In this document: piece after piece, positions 1 to 5,049 of the stretch | How the letters are laid out: every line of letters starts with the position of its first letter | Position numbering within the stretch: position 1 is the stretch's first letter | IMG/VR virus record: IMGVR_UViG_3300022758_000133 | Location: 1 to 5,049 of that record | Reading direction: 5' to 3' (one strand) | Origin: a virus | DNA length: 5,049 nucleotides | Program-made: the position numbers and the translations under genes | Notes under the pieces: generated by a model | The model's input: the letters and a program-made list of their open reading frames with translations, nothing else | Databases searched by the model: none | What the model was told of the DNA's origin: nothing

Positions 1-118
1 AGGACGCGATTTTGAAGATACTGGCGAAGCTTCGCCGCAACGTCTATCAGTTCGTGAACGCGTCCAAGAACTGAAAGCCGCTAAACTCAGGCGCGTTATG
101 GAAGAGAATCAATCATGA
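1..118 (+). CDS. VP4: VP4 replication initiator, C-terminal fragment; a duplicate of 4923-5040 caused by circular wrap-around.
   Basis: Reading from base 2 gives GRDFEDTGEASPQRLSVRERVQELKAAKLRRVMEENQS*, identical to the C-terminus of the 305-aa ORF at 4123-5040. The stop is TGA at 116-118. Confidence 0.9.
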   Translation, partial: GRDFEDTGEASPQRLSVRERVQELKAAKLRRVMEENQS

Positions 119-127
119 TCCTTAAGG
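1..127. repeat. Terminal direct repeat, copy 1; identical to 4923-5049. This is the wrap-around overlap of a circular 4922-nt genome.
   Basis: Base-by-base comparison shows 1-127 and 4923-5049 are identical over 127 nt. The repeat carries the VP4 C-terminus, its stop codon and the VP5 ATG. Confidence 0.97.
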
Positions 128-406
128 ATTTTTTCCGTTTTCGACTCTAAACTTCAGGTTTTTAATACGCCGTTCTTCAGCCGTTCTGCAGCTGATGCAT
201 CTCGGTCTTTCTCTGATCTCGTTCGTGATAGTCGTACCACTGTTGGTCAGCATCCCGATGATTTCTTTCTTTATGAGATTGGTCAGTACTCTGATGAGAC
301 TGGAGAGCTTGTAGCTTCTGCCCCGACCCAGATTGCCGCTGCGACAGCTTTTGTATCTACGATTGAGGACCTCAAAGCGGCCGCGCCTGCTAAGTCTGAA
401 GTCTAA
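115..406 (+). CDS. VP5: VP5-like non-structural protein, frame-disrupted as sequenced. ATG 115 is in frame 1; the conserved body at 119-406 is in frame 2.
   Basis: Frame 2 (119-406) reads ..SVFDSKLQVFNTPFFSRSAADASRSFSDLVRDSRTTVGQHPDDFFLYEIGQYSDETGELVASAPTQIAAATAFVSTIEDLKAAAPAKSEV*. This matches the remembered gokushovirus VP5 pattern (VFD.K...F..PFF...A.R.F....HP(E/D)DF.LYEIG.(Y/F)D..TG) and has strong T3 codon bias. That frame contains no ATG, GTG or TTG at all. The only start is ATG 115-117, which overlaps the VP4 stop (ATGA) in frame 1 and terminates after 11 codons. Removing one T from the T6 run at 129-134 gives MILKDFSVFDSK..., a typical VP5 N-terminus. Confidence 0.75.
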
Positions 407-422
407 GTACAGACGCGGCCGC
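377..422. repeat. GC-only 9-bp inverted repeat (GCGGCCGCG / CGCGGCCGC) bracketing the VP5 stop codon.
   Basis: Positions 377-385 are the exact reverse complement of 414-422. The loop is 28 nt and contains an inner TCTG/CAGA helix (395-398 / 410-413). Each arm contains the octamer GCGGCCGC. Confidence 0.8.
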
Positions 423-443
423 AACACGGAGATTCTTCTAATC

Positions 444-471
444 AGTCCTTGCGTAGTGCGAGGACTTTTTT
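444..471 (+). terminator. Intrinsic-terminator-like hairpin between VP5 and VP3.
   Basis: AGTCCTTGCG (444-453) pairs with TGCGAGGACT (457-466): 10 bp including 2 G-T wobbles, with a 3-nt TAG loop. A T-run follows at 467-471, immediately upstream of the VP3 SD. Confidence 0.5.
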
Positions 472-484
472 ATATGGAGCTTAT

Positions 485-934
485 ATGAAGTTCAAAATTA
501 ATCACACAAACGCTACTGCTGAAGGCATTGTCTTTACTGAACCGTCGATGACTCAACAGCATTTCAAAGATGAGACGATGATTGATAACATTCTTCAGAA
601 ATATGCTGAGACAGGCTTTTTGACTGATCCTTTTACGCCGAAGCGCCCGATTCAGTTCGGTGACTTTTCTGACGTCACAGATTTTCAGACTGCTCAGAAT
701 GCTGTTGCTCGTGCCACAGAGTACTTTGAAAGTTTGCCATCGCGCATTCGCGCTTCTTTTAGTAACTCTCCTGCCGAATTTCTTCAGGCGCTCAATGACC
801 CTGAGCAGAGGAGTAAGTTTGAAGATCTGGGCTTTGTCGCTTCTGAAGAAGTTAAGTCTCCTGAGCCTTCTAAAGAGCCTCAGCCTGCTCCAGCGACTGA
901 GGTTAAACCGTCTGCTTCTGACAACAACGGGTAA
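485..934 (+). CDS. VP3: VP3 internal scaffolding protein (149 aa from ATG 485).
   Basis: The translation MKFKINHTNATAEGIVFTEPSMTQQHFKDETMIDNILQKYAETG...QFGDFSDVTDFQTAQNAVARATEYFESLPSRIRASFSNSPAEFLQAL matches the remembered gokushovirus VP3 signature (S.TQQ.FK.E.DIN.I...TG...GDF...D...A.N.....F..LP..IR..F.N.P..F). GGAG at 476-479 lies 5 nt upstream of ATG 485. The TTG at 449 reported in the ORF track has no SD and lies inside the terminator hairpin. Confidence 0.9.
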   Translation: MKFKINHTNATAEGIVFTEPSMTQQHFKDETMIDNILQKYAETGFLTDPFTPKRPIQFGDFSDVTDFQTAQNAVARATEYFESLPSRIRASFSNSPAEFLQALNDPEQRSKFEDLGFVASEEVKSPEPSKEPQPAPATEVKPSASDNNG

Positions 935-951
935 TTACTAATAACTCATAT

Positions 952-972
952 AAGGGATGGTTTCCATCCTTT
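952..972 (+). terminator. Small hairpin downstream of the VP3 stop.
   Basis: AAGGGATGG (952-960) pairs with CCATCCTTT (964-972) around a TTT loop, with one G-T wobble. T-rich sequence follows. Confidence 0.3.
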
Positions 973-984
973 CAAAATCCTTTC

Positions 985-1013
985 GATCGCCCGCTTGCGG
1001 CGATCTTTTTTTT
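985..1013 (+). terminator. Rho-independent-type terminator downstream of VP3.
   Basis: GATCGCC (985-991) pairs with GGCGATC (999-1005) around a 7-nt loop. An uninterrupted T8 run follows directly at 1006-1013. Confidence 0.65.
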
Positions 1014-1030
1014 CAGATATCTCAACGATT

Positions 1031-1100
1031 TGCGCACGGGTACACACCGGAACCAGTTACATACTTGATGTAACTGGTTCCGGTGACACCCCGGTGCGCG
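1031..1100. repeat. Large intergenic stem-loop with a perfect 18-bp inverted repeat core (1045-1062 / 1068-1085). Candidate replication origin or VP4 nick site.
   Basis: CACCGGAACCAGTTACAT (1045-1062) is the exact reverse complement of ATGTAACTGGTTCCGGTG (1068-1085). The loop is ACTTG (1063-1067). An imperfect outer helix adds GCGCAC (1032-1037) pairing with GTGCGC (1094-1099), and GG (1039-1040) pairing with CC (1091-1092). Confidence 0.85.
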
Positions 1101-1129
1101 TGCGGGTAACCAACGCACTGCTCGAATGT

Positions 1130-1157
1130 TTGCTTTCTCTTTGACTTGTGGTATATG
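1130..1157 (+). promoter_or_regulatory. Weak sigma70-like promoter candidate upstream of VP1.
   Basis: TTGCTT (1130-1135), a 16-nt spacer, then TGgTATATG (1149-1157), which has the form of an extended -10. A better -35 hexamer, TTGACT (1141-1146), has no properly spaced -10. The host is unknown, so the consensus may not apply. Confidence 0.25.
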
Positions 1158-1205
1158 CTTTGCCTTACGGTGATAAAGCTTTTAAGTCTTGTGTTTTAGA
1201 GCCGT

Positions 1206-1249
1206 AAGGCGGCTAGACGACGGGGTTCTCGGTCTAAGCCGCCTTTTTT
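1206..1249 (+). terminator. Strong terminator-like hairpin plus T6, 26 nt upstream of the VP1 ATG.
   Basis: GGCGGCTAGAC (1208-1218) pairs with GTCTAAGCCGCC (1232-1243): 11 bp with one bulged A at 1236. The loop has an inner helix, and T6 follows at 1244-1249. The left arm overlaps the right arm of a second 9-bp helix, GCCTTACGG (1162-1170) / CCGTAAGGC (1202-1210). Confidence 0.55.
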
Positions 1250-1275
1250 GTTATCTATAGCTATTGGATAGGTAC

Positions 1276-2940
1276 ATGTCTTCTGTTAATCGCGCTACAC
1301 AGCATCTTTTCTCGCAGGTTCCTTCGACTCAGATTCCTCGATCAGTCTTTGACCGTTCTCATGGATATAAGACGACTTTTGATTCTGGTTATCTTGTACC
1401 TTTTTATGTAGATGAAGTACTTCCTGGCGATAGCTTTAAGCTGACAGCTACTTTGTTTGCTCGTTTAGCTACGCCGATTGTCCCTTTTATGGACAATCTT
1501 TATTTGGAGACTTTCTTTTTCTTTGTTCCTAATCGACTTCTTTGGGACAACTGGCAGAAGTTCAATGGTGAGCAGAAGAACCCTACTGACTCTACAGACT
1601 TTTTGATTCCTACGGTTTCCGGCACGAATGTTCAGAATCAGACTCTTTGGGATTACTTTGGTCTTCCTACGAATGTGAATAAAGCGCTTGAAGTTAATGC
1701 GTTGCCTTTCCGCGCTTACAATTTGATTTTTAATGAGTGGTTTAGAGACGAGAATCTTCAGGAGTCTTTGAAAGTCCCGACTGGCGACGGTCCTGACAAT
1801 TTGTCTGACTACAACTTAGTTCGTCGTGGTAAGCGTCATGACTACTTCACGTCATGTTTGCCGTGGCCGCAAAAAGGTCCAGGTGTAGAAATTTCGCTTG
1901 GTGGCTCTGCGAAGGTTAATGGCGACGTTACTTTGGCGGCTCAGTACGGTTCGTATCATGTTGATAATGGCATTGGTTCTGTTGCCAATTGGTCTAACTC
2001 TTATCCTGTTGCTTTTACTGATTCTGTCAATTTAGGTTCGAAGGATCAGAAATGGCCGCAAGTTTCTAAAACCATTCCTTTGAGTATTACTGCAACTAAT
2101 CCTTCAGATCCAGGAGGAATTTCTTTTTATGCTGGTCGTGGTTTAGTTTTAGCTAACAATTTGTCCGCTGATTTGTCTGGTGCTACTCCGATTTCAATCA
2201 ATGATCTTCGTCAAGCTTTCCAGATCCAGAAGCTCTATGAGCGTGACGCACGCGGCGGTACGCGATACACAGAGATCTTGCGTTCTCACTTTGGCGTAAT
2301 TTCTCCTGACGCTCGCTTGCAACGACCTGAATATCTTGGCGGATCTTCTGCTCGAATTTCGATCAATCCTGTCCAACAGACTTCTGCATCGAGCGATGTG
2401 ACTCCCCAGGGAAATCTTGCAGCTTATGGTGTAGTCTCAGACAGTTTCCATGGTTTCTCGAAGTCTTTTGTTGAGCATGGCTACGTCTTCGGCTTTGTGA
2501 ATGTTCGTGCTGATTTGACTTATCAGCAAGGCCTTAATAGGATGTGGTCGCGCCAAGGCCGCTTCGATTTTTATTGGCCTGTGCTCGCGCATCTTGGCGA
2601 ACAAGCTGTTCTCAATAAAGAGATTTACGCTCAAGGCACTGCTGACGACGATGATGTTTTTGGTTATCAAGAACGTTATGCAGAATATCGTTATTATCCT
2701 GGCCAAATTACAGGTAAGTTCCGTTCGACCGATCCTCAACCTTTGGATTCTTGGCATTTAGCGCAGAAGTTCAGCTCTTTGCCAACGCTTTCTTTTCAAT
2801 TCATTCAAGATAATCCGCCCGTCGATCGCGTAGTTGCCGTTAAGGATGAGCCGCAGTTTTTGTTTGACTCGTATATTCGTTTGAAGTGTGCTCGTCCGAT
2901 GCCTGTGTATTCAGTGCCTGGTTTAGTTGATCATTTTTAA
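1276..2940 (+). CDS. VP1: VP1 major capsid protein (554 aa from ATG 1276).
   Basis: The N-terminus MSSVNRATQHLFSQVPSTQIPRSVFDRSHGYKTTFDSGYLVPFYVDEVLPGDSFKL, and later ...INDLRQAFQIQKLYERDARGGTRYTEILRSHFGV..., are hallmark gokushovirus VP1 (F-like capsid) blocks as I remember them. The frame is long, intact and T3-biased. The ORF track starts at TTG 1264; ATG 1276 is the more likely start. Confidence 0.95.
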   Translation: MSSVNRATQHLFSQVPSTQIPRSVFDRSHGYKTTFDSGYLVPFYVDEVLPGDSFKLTATLFARLATPIVPFMDNLYLETFFFFVPNRLLWDNWQKFNGEQKNPTDSTDFLIPTVSGTNVQNQTLWDYFGLPTNVNKALEVNALPFRAYNLIFNEWFRDENLQESLKVPTGDGPDNLSDYNLVRRGKRHDYFTSCLPWPQKGPGVEISLGGSAKVNGDVTLAAQYGSYHVDNGIGSVANWSNSYPVAFTDSVNLGSKDQKWPQVSKTIPLSITATNPSDPGGISFYAGRGLVLANNLSADLSGATPISINDLRQAFQIQKLYERDARGGTRYTEILRSHFGVISPDARLQRPEYLGGSSARISINPVQQTSASSDVTPQGNLAAYGVVSDSFHGFSKSFVEHGYVFGFVNVRADLTYQQGLNRMWSRQGRFDFYWPVLAHLGEQAVLNKEIYAQGTADDDDVFGYQERYAEYRYYPGQITGKFRSTDPQPLDSWHLAQKFSSLPTLSFQFIQDNPPVDRVVAVKDEPQFLFDSYIRLKCARPMPVYSVPGLVDHF

Positions 2941-2949
2941 GGAGTTGCT

Positions 2950-3012
2950 ATGGCTTTAGTTATTTGGCTTGCTGTTGTTAGTACTGTTGTTATCTTTGCT
3001 TTAGGACAGTGA
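2950..3012 (+). CDS. 20-aa hydrophobic mini-ORF (MALVIWLAVVSTVVIFALGQ); putative single-pass membrane peptide or coupling leader ORF.
   Basis: A consensus SD, AAGGAG (2939-2944), overlaps the VP1 stop and lies 5 nt upstream of ATG 2950. The peptide has no charged residue. 13 of 20 codons end in T, as in the bona fide genes. The stop TGA 3010-3012 is 1 nt before the VP2 ATG at 3014. It falls below the ORF-track length cutoff. Confidence 0.45.
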   Translation: MALVIWLAVVSTVVIFALGQ

Positions 3013-3013
3013 T

Positions 3014-3616
3014 ATGGGTTTTGCTTTGTCAGAAGCAATTGGCGGAATCGCTAATTTAGGTAGTTCTGCTACATCAGCTTATTTTAGTTGGAAGCATCAG
3101 AAAGAAGCGATGCGGAATCGTCATCAGTGGGGAAGTTGAAGATCTTCGCAAAGCAGGTCTTAAATCCAATTCTTTCGTCTGGCGGTCAAGGTGCTTCAGG
3201 CAACGCTCCGATCATTGAGCCGGTTGACGTTGCTGGTGCTATGCATTCTGGTGCTGATACAGAGCTTAAGAAAGCTCAGGCTAAGCAGGTTGAAGTTCAG
3301 AATTCTGCTTTGGCTGCGGATACTGAGCTTAAGAAAGCTCAGACTGAAGTTGCTAAAGAAGCTTCAACACTCACTTATGCGCAAGCTGTTGGCCAAGGCT
3401 GGCAGAATCGCATATATGATGAGACTTTGAAGCAAGCTCAGAATGCTACTGAAAATTTCTGCTTTGGCTACTGAGCGAAATAAGATGGTTTTTGACTATA
3501 TGAAGCAGAATCCTACTGCTTGGAAAGCAGGTCAGTTTATGCAATTGCTTAATCCTTTTGGTACTGCTGCGCCTGTAGTCAATTCTGCTGTTGGCGCTGC
3601 GAGGCTGGCTAAGTGA
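3014..3616 (+). CDS. VP2: VP2 DNA pilot/minor capsid protein, split as sequenced into four segments over three frames (about 199 aa when reconstructed).
   Basis: Segment a, 3014-3130, frame 2: MGFALSEAIGGIANLGSSATSAYFSWKHQKEAMRNRHQW (in-frame stop at 3137). Segment b, 3132-3161, frame 0: EVEDLRKAGL. Segment c, 3163 to about 3453, frame 1: NPILSSGGQGASGNAP...LKQAQNATE; this is the body of the 128-aa track ORF 3088-3474. Segment d, 3455-3616, frame 2: ISALATERNKMVFDYMKQNPTAWKAGQFMQLLNPFGTAAPVVNSAVGAARLAK*. Joined, a-b-c recreate the remembered VP2 motif ..E.M.N..HQ.EVEDL.KAGLNPIL... The T3 codon bias switches frame at exactly these junctions. For example, 3132-3161 has 5 of 10 T3 codons in frame 0 and 0 of 10 in frame 1. 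Confidence 0.8.
3256..3342 (+). repeat. Internal direct repeat in VP2: a 24-nt unit present twice, 63 nt (21 codons) apart.
   Basis: GATACAGAGCTTAAGAAAGCTCAG (3256-3279) versus GATACTGAGCTTAAGAAAGCTCAG (3319-3342), with 1 mismatch. Both encode DTELKKAQ. Confidence 0.85.
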
Positions 3617-3711
3617 TAGATACGATCTTAAAGTTCGTTAATGTTTTGCTGAATTCCGGTTCAGCGATTTGGGAAGCCTTTAAGGCTGTTAAGAAGTTTT
3701 TTAAAAATTGA
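3613..3711 (+). CDS. 32-aa small ORF (GTG start), amphipathic and basic at the C-terminus; hypothetical.
   Basis: It reads (M)IDTILKFVNVLLNSGSAIWEAFKAVKKFFKN*. GTG 3613 overlaps the VP2 stop (GTGA), with GAGG at 3601-3604 lying 8 nt upstream. Its stop, TGA 3709-3711, overlaps the SD of ORF8. 13 of 32 codons end in T. It fills an otherwise unexplained 100-nt gap. Confidence 0.3.
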   Translation: MIDTILKFVNVLLNSGSAIWEAFKAVKKFFKN

Positions 3712-3718
3712 GGTTCAT

Positions 3719-3838
3719 ATGCGTAAACGTCATAAGCTTTCTCGTAAGGCGTCTAAGAAGATTTTTCGTAAAGGCGCTTCTCGTATTAAGACTTTGAATA
3801 TACGCGCTACGCCTATGCGCGGCGGTTTTCGCATTTAA
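3719..3838 (+). CDS. ORF8: ORF8-like small, highly basic DNA-binding/packaging protein (39 aa).
   Basis: MRKRHKLSRKASKKIFRKGASRIKTLNIRATPMRGGFRI* is Arg/Lys-rich and has the C-terminal MRGG.R motif I recall from gokushovirus ORF8 (a J-like protein). GAGG at 3710-3713 lies 5 nt upstream of the ATG. Confidence 0.85.
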   Translation: MRKRHKLSRKASKKIFRKGASRIKTLNIRATPMRGGFRI

Positions 3839-3913
3839 GCGTTAACCCTTGTTACATGCCGCGGTCGTCATAGTTATCATTTTGAACATCTCAATTTCAT
3901 TTGGAACTTCGCT

Positions 3914-4144
3914 ATGGCTACTGCGGCTTTTCGTTTGACTCTTAAAGACTTTGGCGTTTGCTGGCTTATCCCTGTCGAAGAAAGCTATGTTGGTCGTCGC
4001 AAGTTAGTGACTTGGACGCTTTATCGCGATCGCCCTTGGGCCGCTCTTTGTTCATTTCAGGTTCGTTTTCGTTCTTCTCGTGAGACGATTCTTCGTGAGC
4101 TTCATATTGCGTGTCTTGAAAAATGCCTTGCTTTCACCCGATAA
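3914..4144 (+). CDS. Hypothetical 76-aa protein (Arg/Trp/Cys-rich) overlapping the VP4 start by 22 nt.
   Basis: It is an ATG-initiated ORF from the track. 41 of 76 codons end in T, the same periodicity as VP1 and VP4, which supports real coding. There is no obvious SD and I recognise no family motif. Confidence 0.55.
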   Translation: MATAAFRLTLKDFGVCWLIPVEESYVGRRKLVTWTLYRDRPWAALCSFQVRFRSSRETILRELHIACLEKCLAFTR

Positions 4145-5040
4145 CAGCTTATCGACTCGCCGGATCTAAGACTAAAGACGATACTCGCAACGCTGTAACT
4201 TTTGATCCTTCGAAGGCTATTCCGTTTTCTGAGTTTAAGATTCCTTGCGGTCAATGCATTGGTTGTCGTCTTTCTAAGTCTCGTGAATGGGCTGCTCGAT
4301 GTGTAGTTGAAGCTAAGTCACATAAGAACAACATGTTTCTTACGCTGACTTATGATGATGCTCATTTGCCTGAAGATGGCTCTCTTCACTATGAGCACTT
4401 CCAGTTGTTCATGAAGCGCATGCGTAAATACTTCATGAGCCGTTTTGGTCAGCAACTTCGCTTTTTTATGTGCGGTGAGTATGGCGATAAGCTTGGTCGT
4501 CCTCACTATCACGCCATAATTTTTGGCGTGACGTTTGTAGATAAACAGCTCTGGTCGATTCGTCGAGGCAATAACTTATATCGTAGTCGTACGCTTGAGA
4601 AACTTTGGCCGTATGGTTTTAGTTCAATTGGCGCAGTCAATTTTGAGACTGCGGCTTATGTTGCTCGTTATGTTACGAAGAAAATCACAGGTCCTTTAAA
4701 GCTTGAGCATTATGACGGCAAAGTTGCTGAGTTTTGTCATTGCTCTTTAAAGCCTGGTATTGGTCATGATTTTTGTGAAAAGTACATGACTGACATTTAT
4801 ACTAATGACCGTCTTATTCTTAGTGAGAAGATAATGATGTCTCCTCCGGCTTACTTTGATAAGTTGCTTGAGCGTTCTGATATCGTTCGCTTTGAAGAGA
4901 TTAAGCGTCTTCGAGAAAAGCGAGGACGCGATTTTGAAGATACTGGCGAAGCTTCGCCGCAACGTCTATCAGTTCGTGAACGCGTCCAAGAACTGAAAGC
5001 CGCTAAACTCAGGCGCGTTATGGAAGAGAATCAATCATGA
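4123..5040 (+). CDS. VP4: VP4 rolling-circle replication initiator (HUH endonuclease superfamily), 305 aa.
   Basis: It begins MPCFHPITAY.., a typical gokushovirus VP4 N-terminus, and has a Cys cluster PCGQCIGCR. Motif 1 is FLTLTY. The HUH motif is RPHYHAIIF, with HYH at nt 4504-4512. The catalytic di-tyrosine helix is AAYVARYVTKK, with the two Tyr spaced i/i+4 as in the phiX174 A protein. The stop is TGA 5038-5040. Confidence 0.95.
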   Translation: MPCFHPITAYRLAGSKTKDDTRNAVTFDPSKAIPFSEFKIPCGQCIGCRLSKSREWAARCVVEAKSHKNNMFLTLTYDDAHLPEDGSLHYEHFQLFMKRMRKYFMSRFGQQLRFFMCGEYGDKLGRPHYHAIIFGVTFVDKQLWSIRRGNNLYRSRTLEKLWPYGFSSIGAVNFETAAYVARYVTKKITGPLKLEHYDGKVAEFCHCSLKPGIGHDFCEKYMTDIYTNDRLILSEKIMMSPPAYFDKLLERSDIVRFEEIKRLREKRGRDFEDTGEASPQRLSVRERVQELKAAKLRRVMEENQS

Positions 5041-5049
5041 TCCTTAAGG
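4923..5049. repeat. Terminal direct repeat, copy 2; identical to 1-127.
   Basis: It is an exact 127-nt match to the window start. It includes the VP4 stop and the VP5 ATG (5037-5039). Confidence 0.97.

Follow-up and report, generated by a model that had tools for sequence, protein, structure and literature searches.

The hairpin and its intergenic setting

The viral DNA examined here, positions 1 to 5,049 of IMG/VR record IMGVR_UViG_3300022758_000133 (hereafter the window, 5,049 nt), comes from a circular gokushovirus genome of ~4,922 nt, positions 1-127 being repeated exactly at 4923-5049. Between VP3 and VP1 lies an intergenic region of 341 nt (935-1275), the sole non-coding stretch longer than about 110 nt. 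It contains an inverted repeat of 18 nt, perfect throughout and with 5 nt between its arms, consisting of CACCGGAACCAGTTACAT (1045-1062), ACTTG (1063-1067) and ATGTAACTGGTTCCGGTG (1068-1085). An earlier examination of the letters alone, the sequence-only reading, had reported this 18-bp stem with ACTTG at its tip in the only long non-coding region and had proposed it as an origin or nick site for the replication protein VP4. The coordinates, sequence and location are all confirmed, and the candidate origin is the subject of what follows.

Folded as single-stranded DNA, positions 1020-1110 reach -31.6 kcal/mol, compared with -13.3 +/- 2.3 kcal/mol for 200 dinucleotide shuffles, none of which folds as well (z = -8.07, 0/200); the core at 1040-1095 reaches -21.8 kcal/mol (z = -7.95). 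When the + strand alone was scanned in 80-nt windows, with RNA parameters as a proxy, the hairpin's was the lowest-energy 80-nt window of the genome and scored -49.5 against a mean of -17.0 (standard deviation 5.3) and a next best of -35.5, bearing out the view that the hairpin is the strongest secondary structure of the genome. No Rfam family matches the hairpin region, the only match in the window being a chance-level small nucleolar RNA match elsewhere.

The outer helix that was thought to lengthen the hairpin to ~70 nt fared less well. It is predicted in the window fold (1032-1040 on the 5' side, 1090-1099 on the 3' side, + strand), but in close relatives only 81% of its cells are paired, 3 of its 9 pairs are broken without compensation in 2-6 of 7 genomes, and it is absent from other clades. 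Because relatives do not keep the pairing, we rejected the outer helix as part of the element and treat its two sides as doubtful features. The A1061-T1069 pair is likewise limited to the window: position 1061 is T or G in six close relatives while T1069 is constant, which leaves an uncompensated G.T in three and a mismatch in three. Since this pair and the outer helix fail in relatives, the structure conserved at the clade level has a stem of 16 bp and a loop of 9 nt, NTACTTGAT, and not an 18-bp stem or a 70-nt helix.

In these terms the element on the + strand comprises a 5' arm CACCGGAACCAGTTAC (1045-1060), a loop ATACTTGAT (1061-1069) that holds the near-invariant motif TACTTGAT at 1062-1069, and a 3' arm GTAACTGGTTCCGGTG (1070-1085), recognised from the inverted repeat, the fold and the relatives. 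Only in this genome can 1061-1062 pair with 1068-1069, so that pairing of the 5' arm reaches 1062 and the 5-nt loop ACTTG (1063-1067) remains. Alignment to the phiX174 sequence CAACTTG/ATA, which is cut between G4305 and A4306, places a putative scissile bond between G1067 and A1068 (1067-1068, + strand; a slash marks the cut, and positions are counted from it, A1068 being +1). At +17 to +23 from this putative nick stands a distal box, TGACACC (1084-1090, + strand), a candidate VP4 binding site.

Conservation of the stem, the loop and the distal box

Among seven close relatives 16 of the 18 stem pairs are invariant, and the C1053-G1077 pair has become A-T, with compensation, in MG945560 and KX513869. 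When 68 distinct elements were aligned with MAFFT without regard to structure, pairing held in 85.9% of cases over the ten lower-stem pairs, nine of which show double changes; compensated cells number 114, compared with 38.8 +/- 4.8 in shuffles (0/500) and 18-32 in slid-partner controls, counts that ignore phylogeny. Because this set had been pre-filtered for some arm complementarity, we repeated the test on a set selected by VP4 without any pairing criterion. There, the 5' arm of a genome matches its own 3' arm at 9.96 of 12 positions, against 7.42 of 12 for the arms of other genomes, and for the seven lowest pairs, represented by 26 distinct heptamers, the corresponding values are 6.07 of 7 and 4.20 of 7.

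The fixed part of the element is its loop and distal box. Other clades replace the upper stem GTAAC and carry compensating 5' arms (e.g. TACTTGAT-ctagatgg, TACTTGAT-taagaggg and TACTTGAT-atcctatc), and YACTWGAT is kept even where the whole stem is replaced. Over 49 distinct elements no change is seen at C-4, T-3, G-1 or T+2, and conservation at A-5, T-2 and A+1 is 90-96%; TGACACC, which was not required for selection, occupies +17 to +23 in about 45 of the 49. On inspection, the box pairs upstream in some lineages (the window included) and downstream in others, and it is unpaired in many, so its sequence and spacing, not its structure, appear to be constrained. In some lineages it reads TTGACA.

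Several further features adjoin the hairpin in particular lineages. In L185, L121, L043, L050, L076, L037 and L104 (comparison genomes carry L numbers) the box forms the left half of a second palindrome, TGACAC...GTGTCA, past the main hairpin and sometimes followed by a T-run, whereas in the window clade the box pairs upstream instead. Many lineages (e.g. L087, L008, L040, L047 and L034) have a short GC-rich hairpin directly 5' of the main one, with a loop of GAATA, GTAA or GTCTAA and without a T-run. In the window a direct repeat flanks the hairpin, as CGGGTAC at 1037-1043 and CGGGTAA at 1102-1108, and in KX513869 (L006) the 12-mer GCGCACGGGTAC is repeated exactly on either side; these flanking repeats have an iteron-like look and were seen in the window clade only.

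Occurrence across gokushoviruses

To sample genomes independently of the motif, 80 contigs were retrieved by VP4 protein alignment alone. The loop core and TGAC box lie on the VP4 strand in 76 of these and on the opposite strand in 3; the exact 13-mer is present in 46, and most others differ from it by one to three changes. The exact 14-mer TACTTGATGTAACT occurs in >120 IMG/VR contigs, mainly microvirus genomes of 4-6 kb with the hairpin context. Of the contigs fetched, about 75 are genomes of 4-6 kb whose VP4 is only 36-51% identical to that of the window, and in them the motif sits in a hairpin and is followed by (G/T)TGACAC. Long non-microvirus contigs with the 14-mer lack the hairpin and TGACAC context and look like chance matches. 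In GenBank, which has 3,754 records with a VP4 homologue, 437 phage records fit a 44-nt consensus, all of them microviruses; among the 60 of these 437 matches listed there is no origin or stem-loop annotation, and most have no feature at the match. The element finders were hand-made patterns, and a few projects dominate the IMG/VR samples.

The element is also present in well-known isolates. Chp2, phiMH2K and SpV4 carry it in intergenic DNA on the coding strand, as ctagcgtataacag-tctACTTGAT-ctgttatacgctag-gtgata, gttcggctac-ggaccctACTTGTTgtaa-gtagccgaac-tcacag and ggggcatatat-tACTTGTT-ataatatgcccc-aTTGACgac, respectively. Enterogokushovirus prophages of E. coli carry the consensus form in the VP3-VP1 region, as in the window (L202, 4291-4333). 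In the distant rodent microvirus PQ007342 only the hairpin core was matched; it lies directly upstream of Rep, and its lower-stem changes are compensated. The folds of the window, an E. coli prophage, phiMH2K, SpV4, Chp2 and L069 are all hairpins (z from -3.2 to -8), and the motif falls in the loop in all but Chp2, where the minimum-energy fold pairs the two bases past the putative cut, A+1 and T+2. The sequence-only reading had made its case depend on relatives, and these keep both the hairpin, with compensatory changes, and the loop motif, from genomes 86% identical to the window down to those with VP4 at 36-50%. No comparable hairpin was found in the distant Alistipes prophage L130 (VP4 27% identical), so the element may not reach all microvirus subfamilies.

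Five contigs longer than a genome (L028, L107, L118, L085 and L075) hold two copies of the element with different flanks. They could be assembly joins at a shared 30-nt sequence, or natural multimers or recombinants formed at the origin.

Position, orientation and strand composition

The element lies within 400 nt of the VP3 end in 66 of 71 genomes (median 107 nt), and the VP4 start follows within 400 nt downstream of it in 54 of 71 (median 203 nt). The usual order is VP3-element-VP4, with VP3-element-VP1 in the window clade and the E. coli prophages; VP1 follows the element in the window clade and a few other lineages, and in the window itself the element is intergenic and 3 kb from VP4. Since the element always adjoins the 3' end of VP3 across gene orders, a rearrangement breakpoint lies beside it.

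In some genomes every large open reading frame is on one strand and the element is on the other. These opposite-sense genomes make up whole clades of IMG/VR contigs, among L104, L118/L028/L097, L053, L123 and the relatives L204-L363. We compared their third-codon skew, (T-A)/(T+A), with that of same-sense genomes, whose mean is +0.30 with 1 of 116 below -0.3. Four of the first five opposite-sense genomes have skews of -0.40 to -0.62, and when VP4-retrieved relatives from three lineages were considered, 33 of 33 opposite-sense genomes were negative (-0.10 to -0.63); L123 is an additional such genome beyond these three lineages. In an alignment of 26 VP4 sequences the nearest relatives of the inverted genomes are same-sense genomes, and a same-sense subclade (L213, L215, L217, L220 and L225) lies inside the L104 clade, indicating that the module has flipped more than once. 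That opposite-sense clades have reversed skew shows the element to be decoupled from transcription and tied to whatever determines strand bias, most simply the identity of the strand that is single-stranded for a time and packaged, an argument that assumes T-bias to reflect the packaged strand.

VP4 and the phiX174 origin

VP4, the Rep of this genome (4123-5040, + strand, 305 aa), has its 3' end within the terminal redundancy; the 127-nt overlap falls within this gene. The HUH and YxxxY motifs attributed to it were found as H128-Y-H130 and Y179-VAR-Y183. Pfam assigns the protein to PF23343 REP_ORF2-G2P (E = 3e-25), with a weak match to PF05840 Phage_GPA, and its motifs HYHAI and YVARYVTKK are nearly identical to HFHAV and YVAKYVNKK of the phiX174 A protein. 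The Reps of gokushoviruses and phiX have been reported to be monophyletic (PMC6668415).

The phiX174 origin given in the sequence-only reading is correct. Positions 4299-4328 of NC_001422 are CAACTTGATATTAATAACACTATAGACCAC, and rep_origin is annotated there at 4306; cleavage at G4305/A4306, together with the parts played by Tyr343 and Tyr347, is restated in a 2026 preprint. The loop core of the window element, ACTTG/AT, is the phiX174 cleavage heptamer. GAC stands at +18 to +20 in both phiX174 and gokushoviruses, phiX174 having AGACCAC at the offset of the distal box. The phiX origin is identical at 14 of the 17 positions that are kept by at least 44 of the 49 gokushovirus elements, while its matches at +4, +6 and +8 fall within a stretch that is not conserved in every gokushovirus clade. 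L174 and L192 read ACTTGATATTA, an 11-nt identity with phiX, and some gokushoviruses read ACTTGATA(TTA). The differences near the cut are the two 5' bases, AT in the window, YT in the consensus and CA in phiX, and +3, which is G in gokushoviruses and A in phiX. The link to phiX is made jointly by identity at the experimentally defined cut site, a distal GAC spaced alike in both and homology of the enzymes.

The element as a probable rolling-circle origin

We consider the hairpin to be probably the viral-strand (plus) origin of rolling-circle replication in this gokushovirus, with a probability of about 0.75. The comparison with relatives, with the phiX174 site and with the VP4 motifs supports this interpretation, as first put forward by the sequence-only reading. 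Our confidence in G1067/A1068 as the exact bond is somewhat lower. VP4 is presumed to be the HUH rolling-circle initiator acting on the element in trans, and conservation across phages of Chlamydia, Spiroplasma, Bdellovibrio and Escherichia would fit recognition by a phage Rep better than by host factors. We infer from the comparisons that VP4 cuts here and at this bond, that the hairpin is extruded, and that the TGAC box serves as a binding site.

In the process we envisage, the inverted repeat would be extruded, or the region melted, in the supercoiled replicative form, exposing the loop NTACTTGAT as a single strand. VP4, with its tyrosines Y179 and Y183, would dock on both the loop and the TGACACC box that lies 17 nt downstream, cut G1067/A1068 and become linked to the 5' phosphate of A1068, leaving a free 3'-OH on G1067 to prime displacement synthesis by host polymerase. 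After one round the hairpin regenerated on the displaced strand would offer its site to the second tyrosine, which would cut and rejoin, so that a single-stranded circle is set free to be packaged. Within the same process the element may have a further part in terminating or packaging the displaced strand.

A number of observations weigh against this interpretation or limit its reach. Neither the outer helix nor the uppermost two stem pairs are conserved, and A1068 is base-paired in the minimum-energy fold of the window, which puts the proposed bond at the loop-stem junction. The 7-mer match is weak by itself: ACTTGAT occurs once in the window, is expected about 0.9 times in such a genome and is found at least once in 123 of 200 shuffles, so a single copy is not significant. 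Outside the heptamer the likeness to phiX is modest. Scored with a weight matrix drawn solely from gokushovirus elements, the phiX origin comes 4th in phiX174, at -0.6 where shuffled genomes reach maxima of 0.4 +/- 3.3, and with the heptamer masked the origin has z = 1.83 and ranks 363 of 10,772 (top 3.4%). The same matrix also missed the true Chp2 element; such misses arise because clade-specific stem bases dominate the profile. The phiX174 origin lies inside gene A and has no hairpin (z = +0.67), so that the architecture proposed here is unlike that of the sole mapped microvirus origin, and we found no experimental nick mapping for any gokushovirus in the accessible literature. Pre-filtering and disregard of phylogeny temper the 68-element covariation counts, as noted above. 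As for strand composition, some same-sense genomes are negative too, down to -0.44, and a minus-strand origin or a packaging signal would lie on the packaged strand just as well.

Comparison with known origins

The nearest known counterpart is the 30-nt plus origin of phiX174 and the Bullavirinae, in the same family, which is served by a homologous two-tyrosine HUH initiator, carries the same ACTTG/AT at the cut and has a cleavage box and a distal box about 17 nt apart. It differs in lying within gene A without a hairpin, where the gokushovirus element is an intergenic hairpin, and in having an AT-rich spacer where the gokushovirus element has its GC-containing 3' stem arm. With a hairpin, an intergenic location and a dissimilar spacer, the element is outside the strict Bullavirinae 30-nt origin family.

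In general form the element recalls the origins of viruses whose single-stranded circular DNA encodes a Rep (CRESS-DNA viruses), such as geminiviruses, circoviruses and nanoviruses, which likewise have a conserved loop motif of ~9 nt on a covarying stem near rep and an HUH Rep. Their nonanucleotide is of the NANTATTAC type, and cleavage in TAATATT/AC occurs two nucleotides before the 3' arm, as would the gokushovirus cut under the phiX register. However, the loop NTACTTGAT is unrelated to theirs, and iterons are not established for the gokushovirus element. CRESS-DNA Reps have one catalytic tyrosine and a fused superfamily 3 helicase (PMC6668415), unlike VP4, which has two tyrosines and no helicase and matches Pfam only in its nuclease region. 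Differing in loop motif and Rep architecture, the element is not a CRESS-type origin. The double-strand origins of pC194/pUB110-type plasmids share the CTTGAT(A) core, that of pC194 holding CTTGATA itself (PMC7072734), but these are plasmids, which are not encapsidated, with Rep_1 family initiators, and VP4 matches REP_ORF2-G2P and Phage_GPA. The element does have the traits of HUH hairpin-loop origins, namely an inverted repeat with compensated changes, a loop motif independent of the stem and an HUH initiator encoded on the same replicon, and judged by its sequence it is best described as resembling an HUH rolling-circle origin in which a phiX-type cleavage box is carried on a stem-loop.

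Alternative explanations

Two other functions would also place the element on the packaged strand, and both are less likely. As a complementary-strand (minus) origin the hairpin would be read by host RNA polymerase, primase or PriA, much like the phiX174 n' site, G4 oric, the filamentous-phage minus origin or the sso of rolling-circle plasmids. Such a signal is needed by every microvirus and none is known for gokushoviruses; the element is intergenic, and its hairpin is stable on what is inferred to be the packaged strand, which is equally true of the plus-origin interpretation. There is a precedent in the reekeekee- and roodoodooviruses, other small microviruses whose intergenic, Rep-adjacent hairpins with identical loops and compensatory stems, similar to the gokushovirus element by published description, were tentatively tied to minus-strand initiation, with no link to the phiX cleavage site (Bardy et al. 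2022, PMC9865509). Nevertheless, we regard a minus origin as unlikely. The invariant part of the element is the phiX plus-strand cleavage sequence with a box at phiX-like spacing and bears no resemblance to the phiX minus origin, a host-dependent signal would hardly be identical over phages of such varied hosts, and other hairpins in the region, e.g. 1206-1245 with its T6, could serve instead. A packaging signal, or another cis signal on the virion strand that is bound by the procapsid or a DNA-binding protein and not nicked, would account for an element that is strand-specific, conserved and structured and whose orientation follows the T-biased strand, yet it would leave unexplained the match to a Rep cleavage site and the usual place just upstream of the Rep gene, and we think it improbable. 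Packaging in phiX174 is coupled to the strand synthesis that A protein drives from the origin, and we know of no separate phiX174 packaging sequence described.

A role in transcription or in lysogeny has still less to recommend it. A GC-rich stem after VP3 might be taken for its terminator, and the TTGACA form of the distal box in some lineages, with VP4 or VP1 downstream of the element, for a promoter with TGACA as its -35. Against both, at least 33 genomes have the element on the non-coding strand. The stem is not followed by a T-run (ACACCCCGG), a terminator scan of the window omits the hairpin, and an invariant loop sequence is not a terminator trait. A canonical intrinsic-terminator-like hairpin with T8 lies 30 nt upstream, outside the element (985-1013, + strand), and is kept in close relatives with one loop substitution in PV067908, so termination after VP3 is supplied separately from the main hairpin. 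Lacking a T-run and having a separate upstream terminator and opposite-sense clades, the terminator and promoter readings were rejected as very improbable. Some gokushoviruses integrate at dif (PMC7062461), and GGTGCGC at 1092-1098 resembles, on inspection, the start of a XerC arm, as might be expected of a dif-like XerC/XerD site used for lysogeny, possibly folded from a single strand as in CTXphi. But the dif motifs of the E. coli prophage lie between VP2 and VP4 (L202, about 2607-2634 and 7172-7200), and its hairpin is separate and internal, in the VP3-VP1 region at the position given above; GGTGCGC is not kept in the close relatives of the window, and no E. coli genome matches the window. 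On these grounds, a dif-like site was rejected as scarcely credible.

Novelty and implications

In the accessible literature, which included Kirchberger and Ochman 2020, Kirchberger et al. 2022, Kazlauskas et al. 2019, a 2023 review of single-stranded DNA and RNA phages and chlamydiaphage papers, neither an origin of a gokushovirus nor this hairpin was found to be described, although a remark in the older genome papers on SpV4, Chp2, phiMH2K or Chp4 is possible. A sequence-string search of papers returned primers and unrelated sequence only.

Gokushoviruses are among the most abundant single-stranded DNA phages of gut and environmental viromes and are represented by thousands of genomes. The element reduces to a 45-nt signature, a covarying stem with a YACTWGAT loop and a TGAC box at +17. 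If our interpretation is correct, it would define an origin and a cut site that are carried by an E. coli system (EC6098-type prophages), provide a natural zero coordinate and strand for microvirus genome annotation, connect the phiX174 origin, which lacks a hairpin, with the origins of other HUH replicons that have a stem-loop, and enable gokushovirus-based phagemids or the production of single-stranded DNA. It would also flag candidate negative-sense microviruses. Should the origin reading be wrong, the element would still be a highly conserved, unexplained cis element of the subfamily.

More tentatively, and at odds we put somewhat below even, the element may be the universal viral-strand origin of the Gokushovirinae, a hairpin displaying a phiX-type cleavage box and distal box in the CRESS manner, with its orientation setting which strand is packaged. 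The opposite-sense clades (L104, L118, L053 and L123 relatives) would then be negative-sense microviruses that arose by repeated flips. To our knowledge microviruses of this kind, with a virion strand complementary to all genes, have not been described for the family.

Other features of the genome

The closest GenBank records to the window are human-associated gokushoviruses at 85-88% identity, e.g. PV067910, KX513869 and KT264829. Besides VP4 the genome encodes VP5 (about 116-407), VP3 (485-934, Pfam Chlamy_scaf), VP1 (1276-2940, Pfam Phage_F), VP2 (3014-3616), a small basic protein (3719-3838) and a conserved 76-codon open reading frame (3914-4144) that overlaps the VP4 start, all on the + strand. 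The 76-codon frame has no Pfam match; a frame of equal length is present in L017 at 3321-3551, in the same place relative to VP4. Between VP1 and VP2, a 20-codon, strongly hydrophobic open reading frame (MALVIWLAVVSTVVIFALGQ, 2950-3012) possibly encodes a small membrane peptide.

Set against L017, the window carries a single additional base at ~128, ~3130, ~3163 and ~3456 each, an A before a T6 run at the first site and then G, A and T. The insertion at ~128 interrupts VP5 after 11 codons, and VP2 is divided among three frames by the remaining three, whereas in L017 VP5 (96 aa) and VP2 (207 aa) are intact. The four extra bases are probably sequencing or assembly errors, or else mark a defective genome.

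Downstream of the element, the intergenic region contains a second strong hairpin (1206-1251, AAGGCGGCT.AGAC / GGTCTAAGCCGCCTT), followed by T6 and 25 nt before the VP1 start. Its sequence differs in close relatives while its pairing and T-run are kept, and it could be a terminator, an attenuator or a candidate minus-strand origin. Between the two hairpins, TGTGGTATATG at 1147-1157 is unchanged throughout the seven close genomes and looks like an extended -10 (TGnTATAAT), with a nearby TTGACT that varies among them. A consensus scan did not report 1147-1157, which is a possible VP1 promoter.

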